Part shown: piece after piece, positions 44,308 to 61,390 of the stretch
Layout: each line of letters opens with the position of its first letter
Position numbering within the stretch: position 1 is the first letter of the stretch
Origin: Ktedonobacterales bacterium
Lineage (GTDB): Bacteria > Chloroflexota > Ktedonobacteria > Ktedonobacterales > JADMIN01
Reading direction: 5' to 3'
Length of the DNA stretch: 64,000 bases
Assembly: GCA_035716045.1 (NCBI GenBank)
Contig: DASTKI010000165.1
Span: 80-64,079 of the forward strand
Translations under genes and position numbers: made by a program
The notes under the pieces: generated by a model
What the model was told of the DNA's origin: nothing
The model's database searches: none
The model's input: only the letters and a program-made list of their open reading frames with translations

Positions 44308-44578
44308 CCCGAATGCCGTGACACGTGAGGCTCCGCGAACGATCGCGCCGCTTGCGCCCATGCCGGCGCATCACAAGGCTCGTGGATGGCGTAGAGCATG
44401 GCGCGCCAGCATACTCGAGCGCGTCATGCTCCACACCGCCTCATCGCGCCATAGTCGCGCGCCTAGCCGTACTCCACTCTTGGCGTCACGCCCGCCCGCT
44501 GGGCCACTGCGGCCGCAAAGACTGCGCCAGGCGACTCCCCGGACGCGAGCGACGCAGCGCCGCCCACATCACGCCCGG

Positions 44579-44719
44579 CTAGTGGCTGAATCTCACCGCG
44601 TCGGTGTTGCCGCCGCAGATGATGACGCCGACGCGCTCGCCCGGCGCCGACTGGTACTTGCCGGAGAGGAGGGCGGCGATGCCGCCTTTGCCGTTTAGAT
44701 GCGTTGGCGCTAGAACTGG
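44579..44719 (-). pseudogene. Displaced remnant of a threonine-dehydratase 3' end (attR-like copy)
   Basis: Own translation ...NGKGGIAALLSGKYQSAPGERVGVIICGGNTDAVRFSH* compared with the intact gene end ...GGATAFAALLSGKYQPAPGERVGVIICGGNTDAVAFHH*. 54 nt are identical (caccgcgtcggtgttgccgccgcagatgatgacgccgacgcgctcgcccggcgc). Confidence 0.75.
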
Positions 44720-45401: not shown

Positions 45402-45450
45402 GCACGCGCCTATTTGATAGAGCCCTGGCCTTCGGCCCGAACAACGCCGC

Positions 45451-46395
45451 TCAGTGGTGGAAGGCCACCGCGTCGGTGTTGCCGCCGCAGATGATGACGC
45501 CGACGCGCTCGCCCGGCGCTGGCTGGTATTTGCCGGAGAGGAGGGCGGCGAAAGCCGTCGCGCCGCCTGGCTCGGCCACCAACCGCAGCGCCTTCCACAG
45601 CGCCTCTTGCGCCGCACGGATGTCGTCGTCACTCACCAGCGTCACGCCAGAGACATACTCTTGCGCCAGTGGGAACATCAGCGAGCCGACCTGGCGCGGG
45701 GCCAGTGAGTCGGCGGCGATGCTGCCGGTGGGCGCGTCCACCGGATGGCCCGCCTCCAGCGCGTTGTAGAGCGTCGGCGCGCCCTCCGGCTCGACGCCAA
45801 CAACCTTCACCGCGCCGCGATACCACGCCGCGACGCCGCCGATCAGCCCACCGCCGCCAACCGCCACGAGTAGCGTATCAATCGCGCCGTCCTGCTCCTG
45901 CAGCTCGCGGCCCAGCGTCCCCTGGCCCAGCAGCGTCTCCACCTGCTCGAAGGGATGCACAGGGAGCGCGCCGCTGCGCACGCGGAACTCCTCGCTGGCG
46001 GCGTGCGCGTCAGCAAAGCGCTCGCCCGTCACGACCAGCTCCGCGCCCAGTTCGCGGATGCGCGCGATCTTGGCCGGCGAGGAGATGGTAGGAACGAAGA
46101 TCGTCGCCGGGACGCCGAGCCGTTGCGCGGCGAACGCCACCGCCACACCGTGATTGCCGCCCGACGCCGCCACCACGCCCGCCTCGGGAATATCACGCAG
46201 CAGCAGATTGGCGAAAGCCCCGCGCGCCTTAAACGAGCCCGCGTGCTGCAGCAACTCCAGCTTCACCGCCAGCGGCCCGGCGGGCAGGCCGAAGTCCTGG
46301 CCATCCACCGCGATGAGCGGCGTGCGGCGGATGTAGGGGGCGATGCGCTCGTGGGCCTCCGCGATGTGCTCCGGCGCGATCGGCGATTCGGTCAT
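45451..46395 (-). CDS. Threonine/serine dehydratase (PLP-dependent, fold type II)
   Basis: PLP-lysine motif LQHAGSFKARGA, glycine loop ASGGNHG, 314 aa. Confidence 0.85.
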   Translation of the reverse strand: MTESPIAPEHIAEAHERIAPYIRRTPLIAVDGQDFGLPAGPLAVKLELLQHAGSFKARGAFANLLLRDIPEAGVVAASGGNHGVAVAFAAQRLGVPATIFVPTISSPAKIARIRELGAELVVTGERFADAHAASEEFRVRSGALPVHPFEQVETLLGQGTLGRELQEQDGAIDTLLVAVGGGGLIGGVAAWYRGAVKVVGVEPEGAPTLYNALEAGHPVDAPTGSIAADSLAPRQVGSLMFPLAQEYVSGVTLVSDDDIRAAQEALWKALRLVAEPGGATAFAALLSGKYQPAPGERVGVIICGGNTDAVAFHH

Positions 46396-48666: not shown

Positions 48667-49281
48667 ATGCTGGACATCACGACCTTTACCCGGACACCCT
48701 TTCACGTGCTCTATCTCGTGCGCCACGGGCAATACCAGCGCGCGTTCTCGCCGCCCGAGACACCCGACGGCCCGCTGACCGAGCTGGGCGCGGCGCAGGC
48801 CGAGCTGACTGGGCGGCGCCTCGCGCGGCTGCCCATCTGCGTCATCCACCACAGCACCCTCATCCGCGCGCGCCAAACAGCCGAGATCATCGCCCAATAC
48901 TTCCCGGATGTCGAGTTACGTCCTTCGCCGTTGCTGCGCGAGTGCCTGCCCACCGTCCCGCCCGCCTACATCCCCTACCTGGAGGGCGCCTCACCCGCCG
49001 ACTTCGCCCAGGGCGACCGCCAGGCGCGCGAGGTCTATCGCAAGTGGTTCAAGCCGCCCGCAGCGGACGCGACCGAATCCACGCGCGAGATCGTCGTCTC
49101 CAGCGGCAACCTCATCAGCTACCTCGTCGCGCGCACGCTCGGCGCCACCGGCAAGCAGTGGGTCGCCACCAGCATTCAGCACTGCGGCGTCACCGAAGTC
49201 GCGCTCGGCGGCCCGCGCAAGACGCTGCTTCTGCGCCACAGCGACACCGGCCACCTGCCCCCCTACCTCCAGACCATCTGA
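48667..49281 (+). CDS. Histidine phosphatase family protein (PGAM-like); its 3' end is the island integration site
   Basis: Trimmed to MLDITTFTRTPFHVLYLVRHGQY (RHG motif), plus LTELGAAQA and HHSTLIRARQTA. Ends ...LLLRHSDTGHLPPYLQTI*. Confidence 0.75.
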   Translation: MLDITTFTRTPFHVLYLVRHGQYQRAFSPPETPDGPLTELGAAQAELTGRRLARLPICVIHHSTLIRARQTAEIIAQYFPDVELRPSPLLRECLPTVPPAYIPYLEGASPADFAQGDRQAREVYRKWFKPPAADATESTREIVVSSGNLISYLVARTLGATGKQWVATSIQHCGVTEVALGGPRKTLLLRHSDTGHLPPYLQTI

Positions 49282-49424
49282 TGGGAGATGCGCTAGCCAT
49301 ACGTCATCCGCAACGCTCCTGCGCGCATGCCTGCTAATTCTTCGTCATAATAGAAATGTCTCATCGCATAACTTGACTCTTTGCAGCGATAAGTTGTAAA
49401 CTTCCAGCGGTATTCTGCTCCCGT

Positions 49425-49453
49425 GTGACAGAGTATGCTCTACTATATATAGT
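49425..49453 (+). promoter_or_regulatory. Candidate sigma-70-type promoter for the island plus-strand gene pair
   Basis: GTGACA (49425-49430), 17-nt spacer, TATAGT (49448-49453), in an AT-rich stretch about 200 nt upstream of ATG 49653. Confidence 0.3.
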
Positions 49454-49652
49454 GCGGCCAGGTTCAGTATGACACCAATTCAATGAGGAGGGAGAATTGA
49501 TGTAGATCGGGCGTCCCCCGCCTCAATGAGCCCGCGTTCACGCTCCCACTCGCAAACGCTCCTGAGGCAGTCCCCGCTGGACAACCTCATGCGCCACCCA
49601 ACGGACAGATGTACGAAACGATACGCCCGCAACAACGAAGGAGGGGCTCATC

Positions 49653-50885
49653 ATGGTCAATAATCCACCACGCGCAGCCCGCGCAGCCCAGCAGCCCGGC
49701 GCTGTAACGATAGGAATCGAATTATCCGCCACACACAAGCGCATCTGCGCCCTACCCGTTGGAGCCGAGCCGAATAAAGACGAGTCCAACATTGAGAAGC
49801 GGCTTAAATTCCTCGACAGTAAAGCTGACCCCTGGGCTTCGCCCCCATTTGCGCCTCTCGGGAGTCTCATTCCCCGGCAAACGACAGAGGTTATCCAGTT
49901 TGTCAACGCCTTTATCAAGACCAGCAATATCAACCCAGATGACGTCACCGGCGTGGGTGTGGCCATCGTCGCCAGCTTCGCACCACACACGGGCATCGCG
50001 AGCGTCACCCGAGCGAGCGATCTCGAGCAGCAACTATCCACCATTTTCAAGAAGGCCACCCGCGTGCGGTGCTTCAACCGGTCCCAAATCTCTTGCTTGC
50101 TGGAGCGCGGCCAAGGAATGGCGGCGGGCCTACGAAATGACGACATGGTCTACATTACTGTCAGCAACAACATCAATCTCGGCGTCATTCAACAGGACGC
50201 GCGCGGCGATGGATGGAATTGGGGCAACGCGGGCGGCATCCCCCATATCCCTTTGACGCAGAACCGGCTCACTGACGTAGCGAGTCGAATGAACCCGCCG
50301 CTCGAATTGGCCCTCCCCAAGGAGGTATGCCCTGTTTGCGGTGAACTGCTCTGCCTGACCAACCTCGCCTCTGGCCGCGCCATCGTCACCGCCGCCCGGC
50401 GCGCGATCTCCGGGGCCACGCCCACGAAGATCATTGACATGATGCGGGCAAGACCGAACTCCGCGCACGCCCAGATCATTCCACCTGATTCGGGTGGAAG
50501 TGTCGCGATTTCTCCAGCCATCCAGGGTGTGACCTCGATAGATACGCGCGCGGTCATCGAAGCAGCGGAAGATCAGGATCCTATCGCGCTCCAGATCATT
50601 CGCCAAGCCGGGCTGGCCCTGGGGCTCGTCATAGCGCTTCGGGTCATTCCGAGCTTCAACCCATTCATCGTTACATTGGGCAGCGCTGGGGCCAGAAGTG
50701 ACACCCTGCTCGATGTGGTCAGACAGGTCGCGGTCAGTGTACAGGGCGGCTTGATCCGACATCCCACCGGCGGCGCGAATGTGGCCGTCAATTTCCTCCC
50801 GACGGCGTTCCCCGGCTATACGGGCCTGCTTGGCGCCGCCTGGTGCATCCAGGCGATGAGCGACGAGGAGATACCCTTGTTCTGA
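49653..50885 (+). CDS. ROK/ASKHA-superfamily protein with degenerate phosphate-binding motifs
   Basis: RBS gaaggagggg. ROK-type zinc motif CPVCGELLCLTNLASGRAI, GNAGGIPHIPL (compare GxAGEIGH) and adenosine-motif-like FIVTLGSAGA. However, phosphate-1 is IGIELSATH (not DxGGT) and phosphate-2 is ITVSNNINLGV (not GTGIGGG). Confidence 0.65.
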   Translation: MVNNPPRAARAAQQPGAVTIGIELSATHKRICALPVGAEPNKDESNIEKRLKFLDSKADPWASPPFAPLGSLIPRQTTEVIQFVNAFIKTSNINPDDVTGVGVAIVASFAPHTGIASVTRASDLEQQLSTIFKKATRVRCFNRSQISCLLERGQGMAAGLRNDDMVYITVSNNINLGVIQQDARGDGWNWGNAGGIPHIPLTQNRLTDVASRMNPPLELALPKEVCPVCGELLCLTNLASGRAIVTAARRAISGATPTKIIDMMRARPNSAHAQIIPPDSGGSVAISPAIQGVTSIDTRAVIEAAEDQDPIALQIIRQAGLALGLVIALRVIPSFNPFIVTLGSAGARSDTLLDVVRQVAVSVQGGLIRHPTGGANVAVNFLPTAFPGYTGLLGAAWCIQAMSDEEIPLF

Positions 50886-50897
50886 TCCGGACGCGCA

Positions 50898-53174
50898 GTG
50901 GCGTGTGAGGGCGAGACGATCGCGGCTCCCGCCGCCGCGCGGCATATCCAGCTTGCCATCCCCTATCGTTTATTGCTAGTGAGCGATTGGTTACAGCGAA
51001 TGACACGATATGCGCTCCTCGCGGCATGCGCTGGCGCTCAGAGCGCGCCATCTGAGCGCCGATTGAGGTTTGCGGAATCTGATATCACCGAACTGCTGCT
51101 GCCATGGTTGCTTGAGGACCCCGCATGGAGAGACGGCGGAGACATAGCCCTGTGCGGAGTGAGCGCGCCAACGACGGCGACAAGTGGCGTCAGGCAGATC
51201 GCTGATCGCCATTTCCTCGCCGAATTGAAGCGAATCGTGTCGCACGCGGAGGATGACGACTTCGTTCTCATCTACTTCTCTGGACACGCAGTCTTGCGCG
51301 AGATCCGCGGCGTTGAGAAGACCTGCCTGGAGTTTCCATCCACTTGGGTCCCGATTGATGAGGTTCGCAACACCTGTCGAGAGAATATGCGCGGCGCCGC
51401 TATCCTCTTAACGCTTGATTGCTGTTATCCCATATCCGGCGATGCAGAGCCGGAGAAATCCCGTCTCTCCAGGATCATATCCGCATTGGGCTCACTCATT
51501 CAGGAAGCGGACATCGAGAGAGCCAATAGCCACCACTCAGGTTCGCTCGTATATATTGGCGCCTGTTTGCCTGGCCAGGAGTCCTTCGAATCGAATCGCG
51601 AGCAAAGCGGCTACTTTCTGAGCGCGTTCATCAGAGGTTGCGACGGAGGCGGCGAGTCACTTCCCTCCGTGGATGGCGGTGTGGTGACAACCGGCAGTCT
51701 CATCCAGTTCATTCAATGTGACCTGAGAGGCTGGCAGATTCCCGTCGCGTACAGCGCAGACCCATTGGGACTTCGACTGAAGGAGCTCAGCGCGTGGCAA
51801 GGGCCACGACACGACTGGAACGGGCCATCACATCCAATCATGCTGAACAGCGAGCGGTGCAGCAGACTCGGGCGGAAACTGATGGCGCGTTCGGAATTCG
51901 TGGTCAAGTCCAGTGCGCAGCCAAAGTGGTCCACCAGTCAGTTTCTCAGCACGCGTGACCTGTTTGTGCAAAGCTGCGCATCTGTTTTACCCCCATTGGG
52001 CGCCCGGCTAACGTTGGAGGTAGGCTTCACCAATCAGACGCTCACGTTCGTTGAACAGTGTCCCGCGCATCTCAATCCTGTGGAAGCGGAAAAAGGCCCA
52101 CGCTATCTCGTCGAGAGCAAGCCGCCAGTAGTCATGGCGGAGGGCGCATACAACATCTCGCTCACGGAGCACAAGAATCATGGCCATAATGAACAACTCT
52201 TGGTTCTGTCCCAACATACACCGCAACCAACCCTGTATGTGTATCGCGGCTTGAAGACAACCTTGGCTATTGATGATCGCGCCCCACGAAAGCTGGGACC
52301 AGGCACGAGTTCCGCGCTCCATCCGGCGTCTGGCAGAGTATTCGCCCTCGATTCGGGGGGCGCCCTCACCGTGTGGCCACTCGAACAGTCAGAACGAGCC
52401 GCGCCTGTCTCGTGGGCAGGGCATCAAGCGTCGTGGATGGCGCTGAGCGAAAATGCGTTTGCGGTGGCGGCGGACGGTGATTCCGTGTATTTTTGGAGAC
52501 TGAACTCGGCCTGGACACAGGAAATCGGTTTGCGCGCTCTCCCCCAGGCGCCCCAGGGCTTGGGACGGATCCAGGCTCTTGCCGCAAAGTCGGAAAAGGC
52601 CGTCAATTCCTGGGCGCCTGGAACTCATGTCGCCGCCGGATTTGGCTTTGGAGCCGTCTCGCAAGGAGCGCTACTCCTGTGGAACACCGAGCCAGGGTCA
52701 AACACACAATTCAGCCCACCGCAACTCGTTGCGACTGAACACCATTCAGTTGACGCCATCGCGTTTTCGGATGATGGCGGGCGGCTGGCCTTTGCCGCGG
52801 GCCCCATCGTGCGCGTGAAACAGCGAGCCAAAACAGGAGATTACGGAAGACGACAAGTCGTGCTGGACATATCAGACTATATAAAGACTCCGCCACCGCC
52901 AGCCGGCGCGCCCCAATTAGCGATAACTCGTCTCGCATTCTCGCCGAGGATATTTGCGGGATCCGTGCTGGCGATTGGAACGAATTATGGTGATGTGCTG
53001 CTGTGGGAATATCGAAGGCACAGACCCCCTGTATCGCTACCCAGCGACCGCGCCCTCGTTCAGGACCTCTCGATAGAGGCATGGAACCGTTATGAGGCGC
53101 GCCTCATCGTGAGAGGCGCCAAGAGCGTGGAAGTCTGGGCGCTGGCCACGCAGAGAGTAGCACGTGTACGATAA
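50898..53174 (+). CDS. Caspase-like (peptidase C14) protease fused to a WD40-like beta-propeller
   Basis: His-Cys dyad contexts FVLIYFSGHA (His codon 51285-51287) and AAILLTLDCCYPISG (Cys codons 51420-51425). p10-like SGYFLSAFIRGCDGG...DGGVVTTGSLIQFIQ. The C-terminus has at least 5 repeats ending in aromatic-W (LTVWPL, VYFWRL, LLLWNT, VLLWEY, VEVWAL). The start is either GTG 50898 or ATG 51000 (MTRYALL). Confidence 0.75.
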   Translation: MACEGETIAAPAAARHIQLAIPYRLLLVSDWLQRMTRYALLAACAGAQSAPSERRLRFAESDITELLLPWLLEDPAWRDGGDIALCGVSAPTTATSGVRQIADRHFLAELKRIVSHAEDDDFVLIYFSGHAVLREIRGVEKTCLEFPSTWVPIDEVRNTCRENMRGAAILLTLDCCYPISGDAEPEKSRLSRIISALGSLIQEADIERANSHHSGSLVYIGACLPGQESFESNREQSGYFLSAFIRGCDGGGESLPSVDGGVVTTGSLIQFIQCDLRGWQIPVAYSADPLGLRLKELSAWQGPRHDWNGPSHPIMLNSERCSRLGRKLMARSEFVVKSSAQPKWSTSQFLSTRDLFVQSCASVLPPLGARLTLEVGFTNQTLTFVEQCPAHLNPVEAEKGPRYLVESKPPVVMAEGAYNISLTEHKNHGHNEQLLVLSQHTPQPTLYVYRGLKTTLAIDDRAPRKLGPGTSSALHPASGRVFALDSGGALTVWPLEQSERAAPVSWAGHQASWMALSENAFAVAADGDSVYFWRLNSAWTQEIGLRALPQAPQGLGRIQALAAKSEKAVNSWAPGTHVAAGFGFGAVSQGALLLWNTEPGSNTQFSPPQLVATEHHSVDAIAFSDDGGRLAFAAGPIVRVKQRAKTGDYGRRQVVLDISDYIKTPPPPAGAPQLAITRLAFSPRIFAGSVLAIGTNYGDVLLWEYRRHRPPVSLPSDRALVQDLSIEAWNRYEARLIVRGAKSVEVWALATQRVARVR

Positions 53175-53236
53175 GCGCTGGCCGTAGGCATCCGCCTAGA
53201 CGAGCCTCGCGGAGGCCCATGCTGATGTGTTGGCGG

Positions 53237-53749
53237 CTACCGCAGGAGGGCCACAAACAACTGCAGCGCTGCGATAACCAGCGAAGCCAGAGAAACGATG
53301 ATACCGAACTTCGCTATGCGCAGCGAAGTTCGTTCCGCTTCCGCATCCCGTTTCTCCAGGTTCACCTCCTGCTTGATCACGAAGAGCTGAATCACGACCG
53401 GATCTGATTGGGCTGGCTCCTTGGTTATTGTTCCATGCGGGTGACGCTCAGCCAGCTTCGCATTGATGTAGTTGGCGATTGTGTCGCTGTCATCGAAAAC
53501 CTTCCCGACCGATTTCTTTGTCGCATCGCCAAGCAGGAGGTTGTCCACAGGCTCGCTGGTCTGGTCGCTCAGCCTTTTCAAGTGCTCATCAATGACGCTG
53601 GCTCGGGCCTTGAGAGATCCTCGGAAATATCGTGCGACAAGAAAAGCGATCGCCGAGACCGTTAAGGAGATGAGGAATAGATACACGGAAAGAAGCTGCG
53701 AAGACAACATATACCCCCCGCCAAGACTCTTGGTTAGCTGGATAATCAT
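53237..53749 (-). CDS. Hypothetical 2-TM membrane protein (terminal TM helices flanking a charged soluble segment)
   Basis: TM1 LLSVYLFLISLTVSAIAFLVA and TM2 FGIIVSLASLVIAALQLFVALL. AT-rich island codon usage. Alternative start at ATG 53710. Confidence 0.5.
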   Translation of the reverse strand: MIIQLTKSLGGGYMLSSQLLSVYLFLISLTVSAIAFLVARYFRGSLKARASVIDEHLKRLSDQTSEPVDNLLLGDATKKSVGKVFDDSDTIANYINAKLAERHPHGTITKEPAQSDPVVIQLFVIKQEVNLEKRDAEAERTSLRIAKFGIIVSLASLVIAALQLFVALLR

Positions 53750-53886
53750 TGCACGCCAGGAATCAATAATGGCGTGCAGAAGTACAAACCAAAGCGATAT
53801 TTCAACGAGGTAATCGCGTCATGGATCTTCTCCGCGAGCCACACGTCTCGCGCGTACCTCACCACATATCTACCGGTTTGCTGAAT

Positions 53887-54306
53887 TCACCTTTCTGTAG
53901 AATTATTGGTATGCCCCACGACCACATCGAGCGCGCCCTGCTCATCAAGCCAGAGCCCGATTACGCTCTCATGTGTGCCCAGCGACACAACCTGCTGAAC
54001 GCAGCGGCGAATTTGAGCAAGATGCTCCGCCTTAGTCGCTGGATTGGCTGAACATGGAGCATGCCCGACAACCGCAACAACTCGTGAGCGATGTGACTTA
54101 GCGCTCTCTTGAAGGCAGGTCTTGACCATAATCCACTCGGGGCTTACTTCTTCTGCGCTGAGTCTCTTGTCTGGTCCAAAGAGAGAGATATTGTCTACAT
54201 AGTCTGCATTGTATTGTTTTCGCATCCAGGTGGAGACTGGTTCCTGCACAAAGCCATCAGAGCAGTTGATCACTGCGACAAATCGTTCTGTTCCCACTGC
54301 GTACAA
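53887..54306 (-). CDS. Hypothetical small protein with CSD...HxxC motif pair (possible beta-carbonic-anhydrase-like zinc site; speculative)
   Basis: 139 aa. VAVINCSDGF and VVGHAPCSA lie about 67 residues apart, reminiscent of the beta-CA CxDxR...HxxC pattern but lacking the Arg. Start is TTG 54306 or GTG 54297. Confidence 0.45.
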   Translation of the reverse strand: MYAVGTERFVAVINCSDGFVQEPVSTWMRKQYNADYVDNISLFGPDKRLSAEEVSPEWIMVKTCLQESAKSHRSRVVAVVGHAPCSANPATKAEHLAQIRRCVQQVVSLGTHESVIGLWLDEQGALDVVVGHTNNSTER

Positions 54307-54360
54307 CTTTCCACTATACAGAGTGCGCGATACGCCAGCAGCGCAAGAATGACAAGAAAG

Positions 54361-54369
54361 AATATAGCA
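54361..54369 (-). promoter_or_regulatory. Candidate extended -10 element (TGcTATATT) for the island minus-strand gene pair
   Basis: Plus-strand aatatagca reverse-complements to tgctatatt, about 55 nt upstream of the ORF start. Confidence 0.3.
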
Positions 54370-54405
54370 TACAGTATTTGAAAGCGCCAGCGCTATGGCA
54401 GGTTA

Positions 54406-54457
54406 TTCTACGTCACAGCGATACTGGCCATCTGCCCCCTACCTCCAGACCATCTGA
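54406..54457 (+). pseudogene. Displaced, frameshifted copy of the histidine-phosphatase 3' end (attR-like)
   Basis: Aligned base by base to 49229-49281: 5 substitutions, all at third codon positions and all G/C to A/T, plus a 1-nt deletion in the C6 tract. The last 27 nt are otherwise identical through the TGA. Confidence 0.8.
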
Positions 54458-54509
54458 GCCGCAAGCCCTTGACGGCTGCTGTGGTCGGTGGCCAGGCGCA
54501 GACCTCATC

Positions 54510-54540
54510 CCCTCGCCTCTCTGCTTGAGAGGCGAGGGGG
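54510..54540. terminator. Perfect 13-bp stem / 5-nt loop hairpin (family A-related), candidate bidirectional terminator
   Basis: cccctcgcctctc tgctt gagaggcgagggg. Lies between the phosphatase 3' remnant and the convergent cupredoxin gene. No U-tract. Confidence 0.5.
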
Positions 54541-54610
54541 CATCAGACAAGCGAACGCTGGGTAGCGAGCGCTCGTAGCTATCAAACTGGCTATCAAACC
54601 GGATGTGGGG

Positions 54611-55051
54611 TCACTTGACCGTGATGCTCATACGCATGCCCGCCTCGTAGTGTCCAGCCTTATGGCAGGCGAACTCGAGCGTTCCCGCTGCGGCCGCCTG
54701 GGTGAATGTGTAGACCCCCGTCTTCAATTGCCCAGGATTCACATCCTCGATTTCGAAGAGGCGCGCCGCGTCTATCTCTTCCTCGGACGCTTGGCCGGTG
54801 GAACTGGGTACCGCCATCAACTCATGCTGCGTCTGACCGCTATTGGTCACGACAAAGCGATAAGGGACCCCAACGGTAAACTCGGTCTGTGACGCTTTAA
54901 TGGCGAAATCAGTGAGAGTGATCTGGACCTCAGTAGCTTGCTTTGTGGGGCTGGGAGCGCCTGAGCTCGGAGTGGTTGTGGTCGCGCCACATGCCGCGAC
55001 AGCAAGCAAGATGAGGAACAGACTACTCGTGAGCAGGAGACGCGCTTTCAT
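54611..55051 (-). CDS. Cupredoxin-like (type-1 copper) lipoprotein
   Basis: Trimmed to MKARLLLTSSLFLILLAVAACG (lipobox). C-terminal copper ligand motif EFACHKAGHYEAGM. RBS ggaggtg. Confidence 0.75.
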   Translation of the reverse strand: MKARLLLTSSLFLILLAVAACGATTTTPSSGAPSPTKQATEVQITLTDFAIKASQTEFTVGVPYRFVVTNSGQTQHELMAVPSSTGQASEEEIDAARLFEIEDVNPGQLKTGVYTFTQAAAAGTLEFACHKAGHYEAGMRMSITVK

Positions 55052-55516
55052 CGTAGCACCTCCGAAAGGCGAAAGGCCGAGAGGAGACATCGCCCCCCCA
55101 GCGTGGTGTCCCACAAAGGCCCCTGATGGGCCAGACGCGGGTAGAGTTGACCTCGACATAGTCCGTTCATCGCGCAGGGAGCTACGGCGGCTCCCTTGAA
55201 GTGACGTAATGGAGCTGGTCACAATATGGCGCCATCGCTCCATAAAGGGGATGCTCGTTGCAGCCGAAGCGCGGCACAGGCGCGCTCGCTCGCAAACAAG
55301 CAGTCTGTACTGCTCACGGACTGGAAATCAGGGACTGCAAATAGTAGCGCCAGAGCGGCATTCGCACGCAGGCGCTGTGCCAAGTGATGCGCAGATAGCG
55401 GGAGCCAGAAATGCGCGGCGCGATTGCGCCAGGACACACTTCTGACTCCCGATTGGTGACGCGCGAGGCTGGCGATCTGGCCAGCGCCAGCGCCATATAG
55501 AGTCTCCAGCGCATCC

Positions 55517-55831
55517 TCAGGACGCGCTGGCCGCCTGCGTGTGCGCCTCGCGCGCCCGCTGTTCGACCTTCGCCTGCCAGTCCCTCGTCTGCCGCCGCTC
55601 GAAGCGCACGGCGAAGAGATAGTGCATCGTCAGGCCGATGCCCCAGCCAACCAGCGGGAACACGAACCAGAGGAAGCCTGGCACAAACACCAGGTTGATG
55701 ACGATCAACAGGATGTTCACCAGCACATAGACCGCCGCGTGAACGTAGAAGCTGGTGCGCCCTTCCTCGACCCGCACCTGAGCCTCGGCGCGCTCATACT
55801 CTGACACCGTGATGGGTTCATTCATGCTCAT
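55517..55831 (-). CDS. 2TM-domain membrane protein
   Basis: FYVHAAVYVLVNILLIVINLVF...WFVFPLVGWGIGLTMHY matches the 2TM (PF13239-type) pattern. The start is at one of the clustered Met codons (55846, 55831 or 55825). Confidence 0.7.
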   Translation of the reverse strand: MSMNEPITVSEYERAEAQVRVEEGRTSFYVHAAVYVLVNILLIVINLVFVPGFLWFVFPLVGWGIGLTMHYLFAVRFERRQTRDWQAKVEQRAREAHTQAASAS

Positions 55832-55924
55832 CACCCCCTCTCTCACCTATGTTGTCGCATCCACGACTCACGCGCATCACACATGGGCAGAGGGGGTTTA
55901 CACAGGAAAGTCACGGGCGCCTGG

Positions 55925-57358
55925 CTAGTTCTGGACAGAACCTGCGCTGGCAGGCGCGCTCTGCGCCACGCGCTCGACGTGGATCGCCCGCGCCGCGTGG
56001 CCGTCTCCCTCCTTGCGCCCGGTCACGCGCAAGAGATCACCAGCGGTGACGCGCGACAGCGTGCTCAGGAGCGACTGGCTCTGCCCCGAGCCATCGTCGA
56101 ATGTCGTATCAGGGCTGATGCTGAAGCGCATGACGCGCCCATTCTTGACACGCGCGGCGGTGAGCGATTCGACGCCGACCTCCAGCGCCGTCACGCGCCA
56201 CCGTTTGCCCTTCTGGCCGCCTTTCCCGCCTTTGGACGCCTTCCGCTCCACAGAGACGGGTTCGCCAGCCTCACCAGCCTCACCAGCCTCGGCGGACTCA
56301 GCGGATTCGAGCGGCTCGACAGATGTGGCGGCTTTGCTGGCTGCGGCGGCGCCCTTGGCCGGGACAGGCTCCAGCTCAGGCTCGGGCGAGATGGTCGCCA
56401 GGCGGGCGGGCTTGAATAGTTCGCCGCTGTACGTCTTCGGCACAAGCATCGTCACCGCGCGCGCCAGGATCGAGAACTCGTAGATCGTGCCCGCCGGTGT
56501 GGGCTTCTCATGTTTCAGCTTGACCGAGCCGCCATCCACCTGGAGCGGCAGTGTGACCGGCGCGGCGATCCTGACATGGGACGCGCGATAGAACTGCGCG
56601 ACGTCCGAGCTTGGCTGCCGCTGGCACAGGAGCGAGCCCAGCAGCCGCCCGGCGCTGAGCGGCCCCGTCGCCGTAATCAGGCACACATCGAATAGACCGT
56701 CATCGGCGAACGCGTTGGCCGTGAGGTTGGTCATGCCAGCGTAGCGCCGCGTATTGCTGATAATGATCTCCGAGACGCGCCCGCGCCAGTGAAGATCGTC
56801 CAGCTCGACACGAACAGGGACGGCCCTGGCCTCCGGCAGCGCCTGGAGCGTGGCCAGCCCGATGGCCGCCGGGCCGATGCGATTCTTGAGCGGCTTGCTT
56901 ACATGATCAATGATCGCCCCGTCCAGCCCCACGCCCGCCATCAGGACGAAGTGATTCTTGTGCTTGCCGTTGACAGTGACCTCTCCGACGTCCACCCGGC
57001 GGCGCTCAGAAGCGACGAGCTGCATGGCGGCCATTTGCAGCCGCGACGCGACGCCGACTTCGTGCGCCCAGACATTGGCGGTGCCGCCCGGCAAGACGCC
57101 CACCGCCGTCTCCGTCCCCAGCACTCCCTCCACCAGCTCGTTGAGCGTGCCATCGCCGCCGCAGTCCACGACGACATGGCAGCCATCGCGCGCCGCCTCG
57201 CGCGCCAGCTCGGTGGCATGGCCGCCATGCAGCTTCTGCCGCACGGAAACATCCCAGCCCTGCTCGCGCAGGATGCTCAGCGGCTCCGAGAGGTCCACGC
57301 CCCCACGGCCTGAGCGCGGATTGGTGATCAGGCGCGCCTTGATCGCGCTTTGCGTCAT
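55925..57358 (-). CDS. Diacylglycerol/lipid kinase family protein (YegS/DAGK catalytic domain) with a C-terminal extension
   Basis: RLITNPRSGRGG...VVVDCGGDGTLNELVEG...GVLPGGTANVWA. The ~170-aa C-terminal extension includes a GEAGEAGE tract. Confidence 0.85.
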   Translation of the reverse strand: MTQSAIKARLITNPRSGRGGVDLSEPLSILREQGWDVSVRQKLHGGHATELAREAARDGCHVVVDCGGDGTLNELVEGVLGTETAVGVLPGGTANVWAHEVGVASRLQMAAMQLVASERRRVDVGEVTVNGKHKNHFVLMAGVGLDGAIIDHVSKPLKNRIGPAAIGLATLQALPEARAVPVRVELDDLHWRGRVSEIIISNTRRYAGMTNLTANAFADDGLFDVCLITATGPLSAGRLLGSLLCQRQPSSDVAQFYRASHVRIAAPVTLPLQVDGGSVKLKHEKPTPAGTIYEFSILARAVTMLVPKTYSGELFKPARLATISPEPELEPVPAKGAAAASKAATSVEPLESAESAEAGEAGEAGEPVSVERKASKGGKGGQKGKRWRVTALEVGVESLTAARVKNGRVMRFSISPDTTFDDGSGQSQSLLSTLSRVTAGDLLRVTGRKEGDGHAARAIHVERVAQSAPASAGSVQN

Positions 57359-57397
57359 CTCAGCTCTCCCCTCATGGGCATGTGTCAGCGCCCCGCG

Positions 57398-59104
57398 TCA
57401 GGCGACTCGAATACGGCGATACCGCGCCTGCGCGAGCGAGTAGACCCCGTATGCGAGCAGCCCCAGCGCGATCACCGCGAGCAGGACGCTGCCAAATGGC
57501 TCGCGCAGCGCCACCTCCAGCGCTCCCGACAATCCCTTCGCCTGGCTGGGATCATGCCGCAGGGCCGCGACGATGAAGAACGCGCCGATGATGGCGAAGA
57601 CGCACCCCAGGGAGGTGTATCCCACCCGGCCAAGTAGGACCACGCCCGCCCGCACGTTGTCTGGAGCCTGGGTCAGGTCGAGCTGCCTGCGAAACTCGGC
57701 GCTGTACGCCCGGTAGAACAGCGCGCCCGCGACACCCAGCGTGACCACCCCAACCAGGATGACCAGCGCCACACCTCCCGGCGCGTTGAGCAGGCGAGCC
57801 GTCCAGTCGTGCGCCTGGGCGTTGGAGCTCTTGCCGCCGCTGCTCTTGCCGGTCGCGAGCTCAAAGGCGAGCAACGCCAGACCGCCATAGATCACGCCGA
57901 TCGCGGCGTAGCCGAGCCGGGCGATGACGCCCTTGGCGTCCGTCCCGTAATGTTCCGTATCGAACACCGCCTGGACCAGACACCACAGCCCGTAGCCGAA
58001 CCAGCCCACCGCGGCCAGGATGAGCAGGAACGCCCCGAAGGGCTGATGGTAGATCACCCGCGTCGCGCCCGCCTGGTCCGTGAGGCTGCCGCCAATGTGG
58101 AGCGCGGCGGCCATCGCCAGACCGCCGATGATCAAATAGACGACCCCTTTGGCGGCATAGCCAGCATGGGCAAGCGTCGTGACAACTGGGCTATCGGCGG
58201 CGCGGCGCGCCGTGCGGGCGGTGTCCTCCGCGACCTCGTCGCTCGTGCGCGTCTCACTCTTAGGCATCCGTACCCTCCCCAGCGCCTGATAGATCAGGAT
58301 GACGACGACAAGCGCCATGCTCCCTAGCAAATAGCTCGCCAGCACATCGCTCGGCCAGTGCTCGCCCTCCAGCAGGCGCGACAGGCCAATGAAGACGAGA
58401 AAATAGAGGCAGACCGCCTGCACGACCCGAATCCAGGGCGTCCAGCGCGGATGGATGCGTAGCTCTTGCAGGGAGAGGAACAGCAGAAATCCATAAAACG
58501 CCGTCACATGCGAGACATGCCCCGACGGAAAGCTGCTCAGCCCGATATTCTTGACCGCATGGATGTGGACATTATTCGGGCGCGGGCGCGCCACCCAGCC
58601 ATTCAGCGCGAAGCTCGCGCCATCGGCCAGGAAGCCAGCGATGAGTGTCGCCACCGCATACCGCCAGCGCCGGAAGATCACGAATGTGAGTATGACGGCG
58701 AAGACGATGATCCCCGCTGGCGTTGGCCAGTTGGCGTCGCTGGCGAAGTTGATGAAGGCCACGACCGCTGGCGCTTTGATGCGCTGAATCAGCAGCAGCA
58801 GCCCGACATCGCCGGGAAACAGGGTGGAGGAGTGGGCGCGCAGCGTGAGCGCCATGCCCAACACGGCGGCGAGCGCCAGGACCCACAGCGCTGCGACGAT
58901 GGCGACGCGCCTCCGGCTGTATGGCAGCCAGCCTGATCGAGCGCCGGGCTGTTGTGACGCCTCCGCCCCGGTGGAGGTGACTGTATCAGTATCGAGATTC
59001 GCCACGATTGCCCCTTTCAGCGGTGCGGGCATAGACTCCGCCGCCACGCGCGCGTGACGCCGACCCGTAGCGGCGCGCCCGTCAGGAATGGTGGCGTGGG
59101 TCAT
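57398..59104 (-). CDS. PAP2-family phosphatase fused to DUF1206-type membrane repeats
   Basis: PAP2 motifs RPRP, SFPSGHV and SRLLEGEHWPSDV, followed by three GYAAKGVVYLIIGGLA-like repeats. The start is uncertain (ATG 59110, 59104 or 59032). Confidence 0.7.
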   Translation of the reverse strand: MTHATIPDGRAATGRRHARVAAESMPAPLKGAIVANLDTDTVTSTGAEASQQPGARSGWLPYSRRRVAIVAALWVLALAAVLGMALTLRAHSSTLFPGDVGLLLLIQRIKAPAVVAFINFASDANWPTPAGIIVFAVILTFVIFRRWRYAVATLIAGFLADGASFALNGWVARPRPNNVHIHAVKNIGLSSFPSGHVSHVTAFYGFLLFLSLQELRIHPRWTPWIRVVQAVCLYFLVFIGLSRLLEGEHWPSDVLASYLLGSMALVVVILIYQALGRVRMPKSETRTSDEVAEDTARTARRAADSPVVTTLAHAGYAAKGVVYLIIGGLAMAAALHIGGSLTDQAGATRVIYHQPFGAFLLILAAVGWFGYGLWCLVQAVFDTEHYGTDAKGVIARLGYAAIGVIYGGLALLAFELATGKSSGGKSSNAQAHDWTARLLNAPGGVALVILVGVVTLGVAGALFYRAYSAEFRRQLDLTQAPDNVRAGVVLLGRVGYTSLGCVFAIIGAFFIVAALRHDPSQAKGLSGALEVALREPFGSVLLAVIALGLLAYGVYSLAQARYRRIRVA

Positions 59105-60974
59105 TCGCATCCGCTGCGCCAATGTCAGGAGCCGTCGCCAGCTCATTCGCGGTCGGTTTGGGCAGGGCGCGTGACGCCGCCTCAGCCTGCCGGCTCTTGG
59201 CCCGCCAGTACAACTCCAGCACTCCACCCAGATACATGGCGCCGATCAGATAGCCCGCAACGACATCGCTGGGCCAGTGGGCGCCAAGGTAGACACGCGA
59301 TGCGCCAACCAGCGCGATCAGGGAACCGCCCGCGGCCGTGATCGCGCGCCGCAGCGCCGATGGCCGTAGGTTCGCCAGCGCCGCCGCCACCAGAAACCCG
59401 AGGGAGCTGACGTAGAACATCACATGGCCGCTGGGGAAGCTCGGCTCCCGGATCAGCCGCAGCACGCGCACGCGAGGCTCGGTTGGGCGCTCTCGCCGCA
59501 CGATGCGCTTGAGGACAAAGTTCAGCCCGCTGACGCTCCCGGCGAGCAGCAGGTAGAGCGCCTCCAGGTGGAAGCGAGCGCGCCAGAGGGCGAGCGTTAT
59601 CCCGGATATGACCAGGGTCGCTGGCCCCGGAAATCCCGCCCAGGCCACCCCGCGCCAGAACCGGTCCATGCGCGCCGACCGCGTGCGCTGGAGCGTCTGG
59701 GTGATCGCCAGGTCGCCGGGAAGGATGCTGGCGCGGCGCGCCGCGACCCCCGTGGCGACCGCCACGCCAGCGGCGCCGAGATAGAGCGTGCGGATCAGCG
59801 CGGCGCGGCGCGCGGCGCGGCGCGGCGGCTCCGTGACGTCCCGCACGGCGCTTTCGAGCGCGGCGCTCCCCGCCGCGACAACGGCGGCGGGTGAAGGCGG
59901 CTTGGCGGGCGAGCGTTTCAGCATCGAGGCGAGCGCCCGCCACGCCGTTCGCCATGGCCGCGCCTCGAGCCGCGCGGGCGCGGGGAGCGCCGCCAGCCGG
60001 AGCGCATGCGGCAGGACGTAGGCTTCGATACGCCGCCAGCGCCCCTCAGGACCGCAATCGCCATCAACATGGCCATCCACTTCCATGGCCCACGTCGCAC
60101 GCGATGAAGCGCCATCCGGCTCCACAACCACGCTCCTGGCGCGATACCGCCGTACCCGCTGGTCGTAGGCGCGGCGCCCGCCGATGCGGCGAATGACATG
60201 GGCCAGCAGCTCCAGGGGGCGGAAGCGCTCGTAGACCACGACATCGAGCAGCCCATCATCCATGCGAGCGCCTGGCGCGACGTTCATGCGCATAGCGATG
60301 GCGGGCGCGTTGCACAGCAGGACATGCAGGGCATGAAAGTGGTGGGCGCGACCATCCAGCCTGAGCGTCAGTGGCGCCGGCTGATACCGCGCGAGCGCCT
60401 GTCCTACCTGGATGGCGGCCGCTGGAGCCGCCAGGCTGTTCTGCTTGACGGACTCGCCGATGCCCATCAGTTCGGACAGCATCCCGAATCCCGCCGCTTC
60501 GATGAAGATCGTGTCGCCAATGCGCGCCAGGTCCAGCGGGCGAAAGCGCCCCGTGCGCAGGGTCTCGGCGACGCCGTCGAGCGCCGCGTCCGCGTCCATC
60601 GGCACGCCAAGCGCCGCGGCAATGTTGTTCATCGTGCCAGCGGGCAGAATACCTAGCGCCGCGCCCGCGCCCGCGCGGCTCGCGCGCCAGAGCCCCCTGG
60701 CCACGTCATGAATGGTTCCGTCGCCGCCCACCGCGACTACCACCCGGGCGCCATCCAGCGCCGCGCGCTCCGCGACCGCCGCCAGGTCGTCGGCGGCGCC
60801 AAGCGCGATCACCTCGCCATCCAGCCCGCGCCGCCGCAGCGCCGATTCCAGCGCGTCGGCGGCGAAAGCGCCCTCGCCTGTCTGGTGGGCGCTTTCGTGC
60901 ATGAGCGCGACAACTCGCCGGGACGCGGGCGCGCTCCTCGGCGCAGGCGCCGACGATGACGCGTGTGGTTGCAT
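59082..60974 (-). CDS. Fusion protein: N-terminal DAGK-type lipid kinase plus C-terminal PAP2 lipid phosphatase
   Basis: Trimmed to MQPHASSS (ATG 60974). Kinase motif VVVAVGGDGTIHDV...GILPAGTMNNIA. PAP2 motifs RRERP, SFPSGHV and SRVYLGAHWPSDV, all in one frame. Confidence 0.8.
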   Translation of the reverse strand: MQPHASSSAPAPRSAPASRRVVALMHESAHQTGEGAFAADALESALRRRGLDGEVIALGAADDLAAVAERAALDGARVVVAVGGDGTIHDVARGLWRASRAGAGAALGILPAGTMNNIAAALGVPMDADAALDGVAETLRTGRFRPLDLARIGDTIFIEAAGFGMLSELMGIGESVKQNSLAAPAAAIQVGQALARYQPAPLTLRLDGRAHHFHALHVLLCNAPAIAMRMNVAPGARMDDGLLDVVVYERFRPLELLAHVIRRIGGRRAYDQRVRRYRARSVVVEPDGASSRATWAMEVDGHVDGDCGPEGRWRRIEAYVLPHALRLAALPAPARLEARPWRTAWRALASMLKRSPAKPPSPAAVVAAGSAALESAVRDVTEPPRRAARRAALIRTLYLGAAGVAVATGVAARRASILPGDLAITQTLQRTRSARMDRFWRGVAWAGFPGPATLVISGITLALWRARFHLEALYLLLAGSVSGLNFVLKRIVRRERPTEPRVRVLRLIREPSFPSGHVMFYVSSLGFLVAAALANLRPSALRRAITAAGGSLIALVGASRVYLGAHWPSDVVAGYLIGAMYLGGVLELYWRAKSRQAEAASRALPKPTANELATAPDIGAADANDPRHHS

Positions 60975-61080
60975 GTTGGCCCCTTCATAATGCGCCCACC
61001 AGGCAGGCCCCATGTCGCGGCGTGTAGGCGTCGCGGCGCGGCTATTCCGCTGCGCTCTTCCGTAGCGCAAATGCGGCGCC

Positions 61081-61132
61081 ACCCGCCTTCGCCACCCGCC
61101 TTCGCCACCCACCTTCGCCACCCACCGTCGCC
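61081..61132. repeat. 13-nt x4 tandem repeat upstream of the kinase-phosphatase fusion gene
   Basis: acccgccttcgcc acccgccttcgcc acccaccttcgcc acccaccgtcgcc. Confidence 0.9.
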
Positions 61133-61390
61133 GCATGGCTCGCTCGTGGCGTCCGGGCTCGCGCTCTCACGGCCACATCACAGCGGCGCGCTCACATTCA
61201 CAGACACGTCACAGCACGGCCGAAATGCGACTTTTGTCGCGTCATACGGCGAATGCCGCCAACTACTGTGGACGGTAGGGGGCATGGCTAGCTGGCGGCG
61301 CGATCTCGCCCGCGGCAGGACGCTTCCCCCTGGATACGCCACCGAATTCGATCATCACCGATTTCGATCACCGACGAGGGGGAACATCTC

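Follow-up and report, generated by a model that had tools for sequence, protein, structure and literature searches.

The stretch of DNA analyzed here, hereafter the window, comprises 64,000 nucleotides (nt) from a Ktedonobacterales bacterium (contig DASTKI010000165.1 of assembly GCA_035716045.1). Its forward strand carries a pair of adjacent genes: P0001, encoding a protein with the fold of ROK sugar kinases, and P0002, encoding a caspase-like protease with a C-terminal β-propeller (Table 1). The ROK-like protein has lost the catalytic residues of its relatives, and it belongs to a small family whose genes almost always lie beside caspase, TIR or, once, AAA-type genes.

The ROK-like gene and its altered motifs

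The P0001 open reading frame (ORF) is intact and is preceded by a GGAGG ribosome-binding site 8 nt 5′ of its ATG. By fold and by sequence the protein belongs to the ROK superfamily, far beyond chance. It matches Pfam PF00480 with 60.9 bits (cut-off 22.9 bits; E 1.9e-16), the match starting at profile position 34, so that the N-terminal DxGGT part of P0001 is left unaligned; for the canonical ROK genes retained in the same genome, the match begins at profile position 2, in the stretch that holds the DxGGT loop. A profile of the family matched the glucokinase of E. faecalis (PDB 2qm1) with an E value of 3.4e-23, and the best partial NCBIfam matches of P0001 are NagC and Mlc. An AlphaFold2 (AF2) model built from a 17-sequence family alignment has the two-lobe ASKHA/ROK fold, with a mean predicted local distance difference test score (pLDDT) of 87.8 and a predicted template modeling score (pTM) of 0.88; low-pLDDT stretches within inserts cover residues 271–273 and 374–376. 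In a Foldseek search of the PDB, the best 50 matches to this model (E 4e-20 to 8e-11) were ROK kinases or repressors, bar a few structural-genomics entries labeled only as putative sugar kinase or regulator; 2qm1 came first (E 3.7e-20), and 2yhy, 3vgk, 3vov, 1z05 and 5f7q were among the others. Residues 1–14 are disordered and the fold begins at residue 18, so P0001 has no N-terminal winged-helix domain, in line with a first-pass annotation made from the window's letters; no helix-turn-helix was seen in the Pfam match.

Motif equivalences were taken from three residue-level comparisons that agree with one another: the family profile against 2qm1 and human N-acetylmannosamine kinase (MNK), an alignment with P0057, which is a canonical kinase from within the same order, and residue counts per column for 18 family members and 10 canonical ROKs. 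All motif strings quoted in the first-pass annotation are present (Table 1), and both phosphate loops, which it had called non-canonical, lie outside the range of the 10 canonical ROKs. In phosphate-1, the DxGGT of canonical ROKs (D10/G10/G9/T10) reads E23-L-S-A-T27 in P0001. Position 23 is Glu in 13 of 14 family members and Asp in the other, and the glycine pair is replaced by mixed small residues at position 25 (with a single Gly) and by Ala, Gly or Ser at position 26. Phosphate-2 reads S171-N-N-I-N-L-G177, where N173 and N175 are found in 12/18 and 14/18 family members at positions that are Gly in all 10 canonical ROKs. The adenosine GGG has become GSA; G343 is invariant in the family and position 344 is Gly in 16/18 members (Ser in P0001), while position 345 is never Gly, compared with 8 of the 10 canonical ROKs.

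The catalytic base of ROK kinases is the Asp of the N-D motif (Asp517 in human MNK), and its role, like that of the sugar-binding Glu residues, is established from ROK kinase structures such as that of human MNK. In P0001 the xNDxN motif reads FNRSQ; position 143 is Arg in 15 of 16 family members and Thr in one, versus Asp in all 10 canonical ROKs. The GExGH motif reads GGIPH, position 195 being mostly Gly (G9, E2) where canonical ROKs have Glu (E10), and position 197 Arg, Pro or Ala where they have Gly (G10). Similarly, CxCGxxGCxE reads CPVCGELLCLT, and the terminal sugar-binding Glu (E10 in canonical ROKs) is Thr236; it is lost in all 18 family members, where Ser, Thr, His, Trp, Tyr or Met take its place. 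The zinc ligands themselves are kept, since H198, C226, C229 and C234 are invariant (18/18), although the CxxC spacing is one residue longer than the canonical CxC and the His-to-Cys loop is longer, at 27 residues. P0001 thus lacks DxGGT, the N-D Asp, GTGxGGG, the Glu of GExGH and the Glu of GCxE, and, judged by these residues, is no longer capable of sugar kinase activity. The strongest arguments that these residues offer against kinase activity are the change of Asp to Arg at the catalytic base and the loss of both sugar-binding Glu residues. The alignment of the catalytic Asp and phosphate loops proposed in the first-pass annotation therefore returned Arg143 for the Asp and replacement of both loops. 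The departure that it described as erosion is real and goes deeper than it stated, as Arg143, Gly195 and Thr236 for the sugar-binding Glu residues and the CxxC...C zinc spacing were absent from its list.

The long insert after the zinc motif is absent from 2qm1. The hairpin that follows its invariant D279-x-G covers E283–297 in the AF2 model. P0057 (L051 4930–6027, genome G129) also has a long post-zinc insert, along with an Asp equivalent to D279, and the canonical kinase type that it represents within the order is likely the ancestral type of the altered family. Two special roles considered for D279-x-G-G, as a displaced DxGGT phosphate loop or as a caspase cleavage site, were rejected because the Asp is present in canonical P0057 and is invariant in TIR-linked family members too.

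A phmmer search of 1.84 billion representative sequences with P0001 gave 48 matches, the top ~16 of which (~16 clusters at 50% identity) form a distinct group with the same substitutions. This group is monophyletic in a tree with a canonical ROK outgroup (Shimodaira-Hasegawa-like approximate likelihood ratio support 95). Phylum-scan matches at 100–134 bits, considered as intermediate members, were instead fully canonical ROK kinases such as P0057. A profile search of genome contigs with the caspase-clade alignment returned only canonical ROK genes of unrelated phyla, and scans of metagenome contigs and viral contigs gave no confirmed relatives.

The replacements at positions 23, 143, 173 and 175 are conserved across the family, and so are R30, S171 and E151; the site was therefore remodeled and not eroded, which is where the first-pass description does not hold. 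In the orthologs of genomes G005 and G018 (one genus, 62% identity), the ratio of nonsynonymous to synonymous substitution rates (dN/dS) is ~0.26, with a dS of ~1 that is near saturation. Taken together, the conserved replacements, this ratio and the canonical ROK genes kept in the genome indicate a pseudo-enzyme under selection and not a decaying gene. Because the replacement residues are conserved, the cleft appears to have been rebuilt for another job, with the zinc site and the two-lobe fold retained.

A rebuilt cleft could in principle still be catalytic. P0001 would then be a working kinase of small molecules, or an ATPase, that operates through non-canonical motifs, phosphorylating for example a non-sugar substrate or a residue of its partner. 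Many members keep the Glu23 carboxylate and Thr27 in phosphate-1, most keep the adenosine GG, R30 and E151 are conserved, and the new residues are under purifying selection. However, the general base has become Arg in nearly every member, bulkier Asn and Leu residues have entered both of the glycine-rich loops that cradle phosphate, all three acidic sugar ligands are lost, and the host genome keeps canonical ROK genes. We consider retained catalysis quite improbable.

Table 1. Coordinates of the ROK-like gene, its motifs, its partner gene and the surrounding features in the window.
Feature	Coordinates	Strand	Remarks
ROK-fold pseudo-kinase gene P0001	49653..50885	+	410 aa; Pfam ROK, AF2, Foldseek
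Altered phosphate-1 loop IGIELSATH (canonical IGxDxGGT)	49710..49736	+	residues 20–28; aligned to IGIDLGGTT (2qm1) and IGVDLGGTQ (P0057)
N142-R143, catalytic Asp of the ND motif replaced by Arg	50076..50081	+	aligned to DNDAN (2qm1) and GNDAN (P0057)
Altered phosphate-2 loop VSNNINLGV (canonical (G/S)TGxGGG)	50160..50186	+	residues 170–178; aligned to LGTGVGGGI and VSTGIGGGV
GNAGGIPHIPL, zinc ligand His198 kept, sugar-binding Glu lost (G195)	50223..50255	+	residues 191–201
Zinc motif CPVCGELLCL, C226-x-x-C229-x4-C234	50328..50357	+	residues 226–235; three Cys 18/18
Invariant D-x-G motif D279-S-G-G, opening a β-hairpin in the long insert after the zinc motif	50487..50498	+	D279 and G281 18/18
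Adenosine motif TLGSAGA (canonical xGGG)	50673..50693	+	residues 341–347
Partner gene P0002, caspase-like protease with C-terminal β-propeller	51000..53174	+	724 aa; His-Cys dyad YFSGHA 51273–51290, LDCCYP 51414–51431; middle region unassigned
Three sigma-70-like promoter matches 5′ of the ROK-like gene	49373..49497	+	sole promoter-like sites in 49200–54500
Direct repeat, left copy (island left edge)	49259..49281	+	last codons and TGA of histidine-phosphatase gene
Direct repeat, right copy (island right edge)	54435..54457	+	displaced copy of phosphatase gene 3′ end
Protein with a transmembrane helix at each end	53237..53749	-	170 aa; inside island; without Pfam or NCBIfam family
Pro_CA_2 gene (putative carbonic anhydrase)	53887..54306	-	139 aa; PF20393, 115.9 bits; in island

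Partner genes and mobility of the pair

The start of P0002 was set at ATG 51000 and not at GTG 50898, following the M-[AT]-R-[HY]-A start of its homologs, so the intergenic gap is 114 nt and not 12 nt. Numbered from this ATG, the dyad residues of P0002 are His96 and Cys141/142. P0002 shares 44% identity with P0004, which adjoins the closest ROK-like homolog, P0003, and it has sub-threshold matches to NCBIfam caspase_w_EACC1 and to the PADLOC caspase model. AF2 places a caspase core at residues 1–143 and a propeller at residues 430–720 with moderate confidence and the part between them with low confidence; the model is too weak in its middle third (mean pLDDT 60.8) for a fold search. The promoter matches upstream of the ROK-like gene are no more numerous than expected from shuffled sequence and are weak evidence.

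Neighborhoods of family members were collected by 12 look-ups by identity and by whole-genome searches, which yielded 14 loci with a readable neighbor gene. The neighbor is a caspase-propeller gene in eight of them (the window, L007, L008, G005, L052/L053, L054, L071 and G018; six clusters at 50% identity), a TIR-RCC1 gene in three, a TIR-FGE gene in one and an AAA/McrB-type ATPase gene in one, and one locus has no partner. P0003, on a metagenome contig from JGI and the sole close homolog (52% identity), is followed by a homolog of the caspase partner, and further homologs of this caspase-propeller protein accompany the more distant members P0007, P0055, P0018, P0021, P0008 and P0022 (21–33% identity). 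Gaps of 3–26 nt separate the paired genes in several loci and P0055 overlaps its partner by 13 nt in G005; in G018, P0022 and its caspase partner are split over two contig ends. The linkage to the caspase gene noted in the first-pass annotation thus extends to eight loci, and the non-canonical loops together with this adjacency support its view of a pseudo-kinase or non-catalytic partner. The ROK-like gene P0008, on metagenome contig L071 (1–827), has an in-frame stop just 5′ of its SKNIN loop, and the caspase gene downstream is apparently intact; the stop reflects either a pseudogene or an assembly error.

Co-occurrence of the two genes, which had been suggested as a check, is perfect. Among 401 evenly sampled genomes of the phylum, only three have the caspase partner; these are the three with a strong ROK-like member, and no genome has one gene alone (chance probability ~1e-7). 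Sequence identity between ROK-like proteins, taken pair by pair, also co-varies with that between their partners (Pearson 0.93, Spearman 0.69, exact Mantel 7/720), with the Mantel signal coming largely from one close pair. These data bear on the possibility that P0001 is a decaying ROK relic that lies beside a caspase gene by chance. P0001 does have the most degraded adenosine motif of the family (GSA), and one relative has the in-frame stop. Such a relic is nevertheless barely credible given the intact ORFs, a fold predicted at high confidence, replacement residues conserved over 18 sequences, the dN/dS value, partner adjacency in 13/14 informative loci and the co-occurrence across the phylum.

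Nested inside the caspase-linked members (support 100) is a clade that the first-pass annotation did not anticipate, in which the ROK-like gene pairs with TIR or AAA-type genes instead. TIR fused to RCC1 repeats is the neighbor in three loci, at gaps of 3–37 nt, and TIR fused to an FGE-sulfatase domain is the neighbor of P0014, the genes being convergent. In G426, a genome of the window's genus, a family member identical to P0014 over the aligned stretch is likewise convergent with a TIR-FGE-sulfatase gene (L060, G426:C39, 6535–9263). This locus differs from that of the window and is adjoined by a TetR regulator and two ABC exporters. The TIR partners match ThsB_TIR/TIR_2 and the PADLOC TIR models. 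P0009, on a JGI contig, sits between an upstream gene for a 1006-aa STAND protein (NB-ARC and TPR) and a gene for a 703-aa AAA_5/McrB-lid ATPase, an arrangement that may be a three-gene variant of the module. The contig bearing P0012 ends too early for its neighborhood to be informative. Across these loci the ROK-like gene is the constant member, and the other gene supplies an immunity or cell-death head (caspase, TIR, once AAA/McrB), mostly fused to a WD40, RCC1 or FGE-sulfatase sensor-like domain.

A constant partner of this sort could act like an antitoxin, holding the caspase or TIR head inactive until its loss or titration frees the effector. An upstream gene that is tightly coupled to or overlaps its neighbor is typical of toxin-neutralizer pairs, the ROK-like protein and its partner co-diverge, and ROK folds are known to act by protein-protein contacts alone, as do Mlc, which binds EIIB (PDB 3bp8), and the methicillin-resistance factor MecR2 (PDB 4ija), both among the fold matches of P0001. 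However, the usual antitoxin is far simpler than this protein, which has 400 aa, a conserved cleft and a zinc site; a single fold would have to neutralize unrelated caspase, TIR and AAA domains, and the genes of the TIR-FGE loci are convergent and not co-transcribed. Inhibition by the ROK-like protein is improbable, if less so than the retained catalysis weighed above.

The module moves horizontally. In the window the pair occupies a 5.2-kb island with a GC content of 0.51–0.63, versus 0.68–0.72 outside, bounded by an exact 23-nt direct repeat whose copies lie 5176 nt apart and which extends to ~53 nt as an imperfect repeat with third-position differences. In two congeners, synteny is kept up to the phosphatase stop codon and then jumps to the homolog of window position ~61400, so the whole of 49282–61360 is a variable insertion hot spot. 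At this site G426:C87 has 0.5 kb, and G436:C4 has an unrelated 4.6 kb with a YkuD-domain protein and an ECF sigma factor. The pair in G005 likewise lies in a low-GC patch (0.36–0.40 versus 0.44–0.54), and transposase fragments flank the P0003 pair on L007. Family members occur in 2/13 genomes of the genus, with different partner types, in 4/169 of the order and in 3/401 of the phylum sample.

The hot spot of the window lies between histidine-phosphatase and NirK-like genes and also holds a cupredoxin-like gene and a DAGK/PAP2 cluster. Elsewhere in the window, a PALP (threonine-dehydratase-like) gene has a duplicated 3′ end (44565–44679 and 45444–45545, ~0.8 kb apart), both copies of which match a single place in G436; this duplication repeats the pattern of the ROK/caspase island. 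Proteins of 144–170 aa with terminal transmembrane helices and a charged middle are encoded beside the pair in four loci (the window, 53237–53749; L008, 5049–5525; L052, 6682–7116; L054, 1712–2188). They were considered as a homologous third component, which was rejected: the architecture is shared with no significant sequence similarity (best E 0.03). The small proteins may be a third component, or their presence may be a coincidence.

Possible roles of the ROK-like protein

A constant component, swappable heads with repeat or lectin-like sensor tails, closely coupled genes, patchy spread and a mobile or variable island are the generic signature of conflict modules, and the family shows them all. 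The reading that we favor, with about evenly balanced confidence, is that of a mobile two-gene conflict module in which the ROK-like protein is a subunit that does not catalyze but regulates or binds a ligand. Read in this way, it would physically bind its partner and act as a clamp without catalysis of its own, controlled by a ligand or nucleotide; as the ASKHA lobes open and close, they would determine the activation threshold of the caspase or TIR head, in the service of phage defense or programmed cell death. Such a clamp would take the role that STAND, MoxR or Hsp70-type NTPases have in related systems (Kaur et al., 2020; PMC7159879). Its specific role may be that of a sensor, an inhibitor, a chaperone or a substrate.

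Several observations weigh against this subunit role. We infer the interaction of the ROK-like protein with its partner purely from comparative genomics, including a Mantel signal that leans on a single pair. No PADLOC model matches the ROK-like proteins (four tested against PADLOC-DB 2.0), the partners have only generic and weak caspase or TIR domain matches, and no known defense gene was seen to flank the pair in the window. The clade of P0010, P0015 and P0019 has the N-R substitution, and P0010, the sole member looked up, has housekeeping genes around it and no evident partner. The family is small and mostly metagenomic. In the cleft itself, Glu stands for Asp in phosphate-1, Thr27 is often kept and the adenosine GG is kept in most members, and some residual nucleotide binding in P0001 is conceivable. 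Finally, sensor-like domains are already part of the partners, which makes the need for another sensor less than obvious; this point fits an alternative with the roles reversed equally well.

In that alternative, a trigger is sensed by the propeller or lectin domain of the partner, which then turns the ROK-like protein on; caspase partners would do so by site-specific cleavage and TIR partners through a nucleotide that they make. The ROK-like protein would be a latent effector or substrate, serving in every pair as the executioner, either through a new activity or by sequestration. The ROK-like gene lies 5′ of a caspase-type protease gene, as in EACC1-caspase modules (PMC7159879), and the layout matches that of protease-effector modules whose effectors (MBL, alpha/beta-hydrolase, Pepco, EACC1) are unleashed by proteolysis (PMC12642450). 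The conserved R143, N173 and N175 might together make up a new catalytic or ligand site, and the long family-specific loops and inserts, some of low pLDDT (271–273 and 374–376), could be cleavage sites. However, a cleft stripped of its base and glycine loops suggests no plausible toxic activity, and protease, NADase/cyclase and AAA ATPase heads would need three activation routes for one target. ROK/ASKHA is also absent from the protease-associated partner domains listed in PMC12642450. An executioner role for the ROK-like protein is unlikely, yet it is the main rival of a regulatory or ligand-binding subunit.

A more specific form of the subunit role would make the altered ROK fold a receptor for an immune small molecule, binding ADP-ribose-type TIR products or nucleotide-sugars. 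We place it at the unlikely end, between the executioner and the inhibitor accounts. The cleft of a sugar kinase holds an ADP moiety next to a sugar and would be pre-adapted to such ligands; Arg143, in place of the catalytic Asp, together with Asn173 and Asn175, in place of the loop glycines, might grip the diphosphate, and the neighboring caspase or TIR protein would be turned on as the lobes close. Such a receptor would have a parallel in mammals, where hexokinase and NAGK are sugar-sensing components of innate immunity upstream of inflammasome/caspase signaling. If true, the receptor would be of a class new to bacterial immunity.

Should the partnership prove functional in any of these forms, bacterial caspase and TIR signaling would gain another regulator or receptor fold, one new to it, and the family would be a clean natural case of a pseudo-enzyme that arose from a metabolic enzyme and whose rebuilt cleft is conserved. 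The compact two-gene system would be directly testable in E. coli. Its general importance may be limited, as the family is small and is found mostly in uncultured bacteria.

Comparison with known systems

ROK sugar kinases, such as 2qm1, GlkA of S. griseus (3vgk) and human MNK (2yhw/2yhy), share with P0001 the same two-lobe fold (Foldseek E 1e-20 to 1e-16), a zinc site of one His and three Cys, the C-terminal helices and a dimer-type core. In P0001, however, GCxE has become LCxT, GExGH has become GGxPH and CxC has become CxxC, and extra inserts are present at residues 36–54, 200–225 and 253–297. The genes of its family are found with caspase or TIR genes and not with those of sugar metabolism. 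The Mlc/NagC repressors (1z05, 1z6r, 3bp8) and MecR2 of S. aureus (4ija) are ROK folds that serve regulation or protein contacts, as we propose for P0001. Mlc and NagC retain most sugar-site residues. Unlike Mlc, NagC and XylR repressors, P0001 is without an N-terminal winged helix (~80 aa in the repressors), and its genomic context is different.

On the partner side, P0002 has the architecture of the orthocaspase/metacaspase-WD40 proteins of multicellular bacteria, with a His-Cys dyad and a C-terminal propeller, but in the 401-genome phylum sample its subfamily is found only beside the ROK-like gene. Thoeris, with its ThsB-type TIR sensors, and other TIR defense systems likewise use TIR heads, and TIR and caspase are interchangeable within the loci of the ROK-like family. 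In type IV Thoeris, a TIR signal activates a caspase-like protease. In contrast with Thoeris, the ROK-like loci have no ThsA-type (SIR2/Macro/SLOG) effector, the second gene encodes an altered ROK, and PADLOC has no matching system model.

Kaur et al. (2020; PMC7159879), Kaur 2021, a 2025 preprint on protease-effector modules and a 2026 domain-centric defense screen make no mention of partners with a ROK or ASKHA fold. Keyword literature searches that combined ROK with caspase, orthocaspase, TIR or anti-phage returned nothing relevant. The family is apparently undescribed, and a pseudo-kinase as the constant partner of a variable-effector conflict module is unreported in the literature searched; the function that we propose for it is deduced from comparative genomics.

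The closest parallel in organization is the EACC1-caspase two-gene system (Kaur et al., 2020; PMC7159879), for which activation by proteolysis has been shown (PMC12642450). In the protease-effector modules of the latter study, a defense-type protease cleaves and thereby activates the product of the neighboring gene; for the ROK-caspase pair, it is the adjacency that is seen, in eight loci. The caspase domains of the partners have 'caspase, EACC1-associated type' as their best NCBIfam match. Their scores against NF047832 (29.2 bits for P0002 and 20.9–37 bits for its homologs) lie far below its cut-off of 140 bits. The EACC1-caspase system shares with the ROK-like loci a constant 5′ gene, a 3′ gene whose product begins with a caspase-like domain and varies toward its C-terminus, and a link to mobile or variable regions. 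However, EACC1 is a small protein with a single transmembrane segment, whereas the 5′ gene of the ROK module encodes a 400-aa soluble ROK fold with no EACC1 or transmembrane match. Two-gene modules in which a constant partner is combined with a swappable caspase or TIR head are a recognized theme in bacterial immunity and programmed cell death, and in contrast to the EACC1-caspase system, it is the caspase head itself that is swapped, for TIR or AAA, in the ROK-like family.

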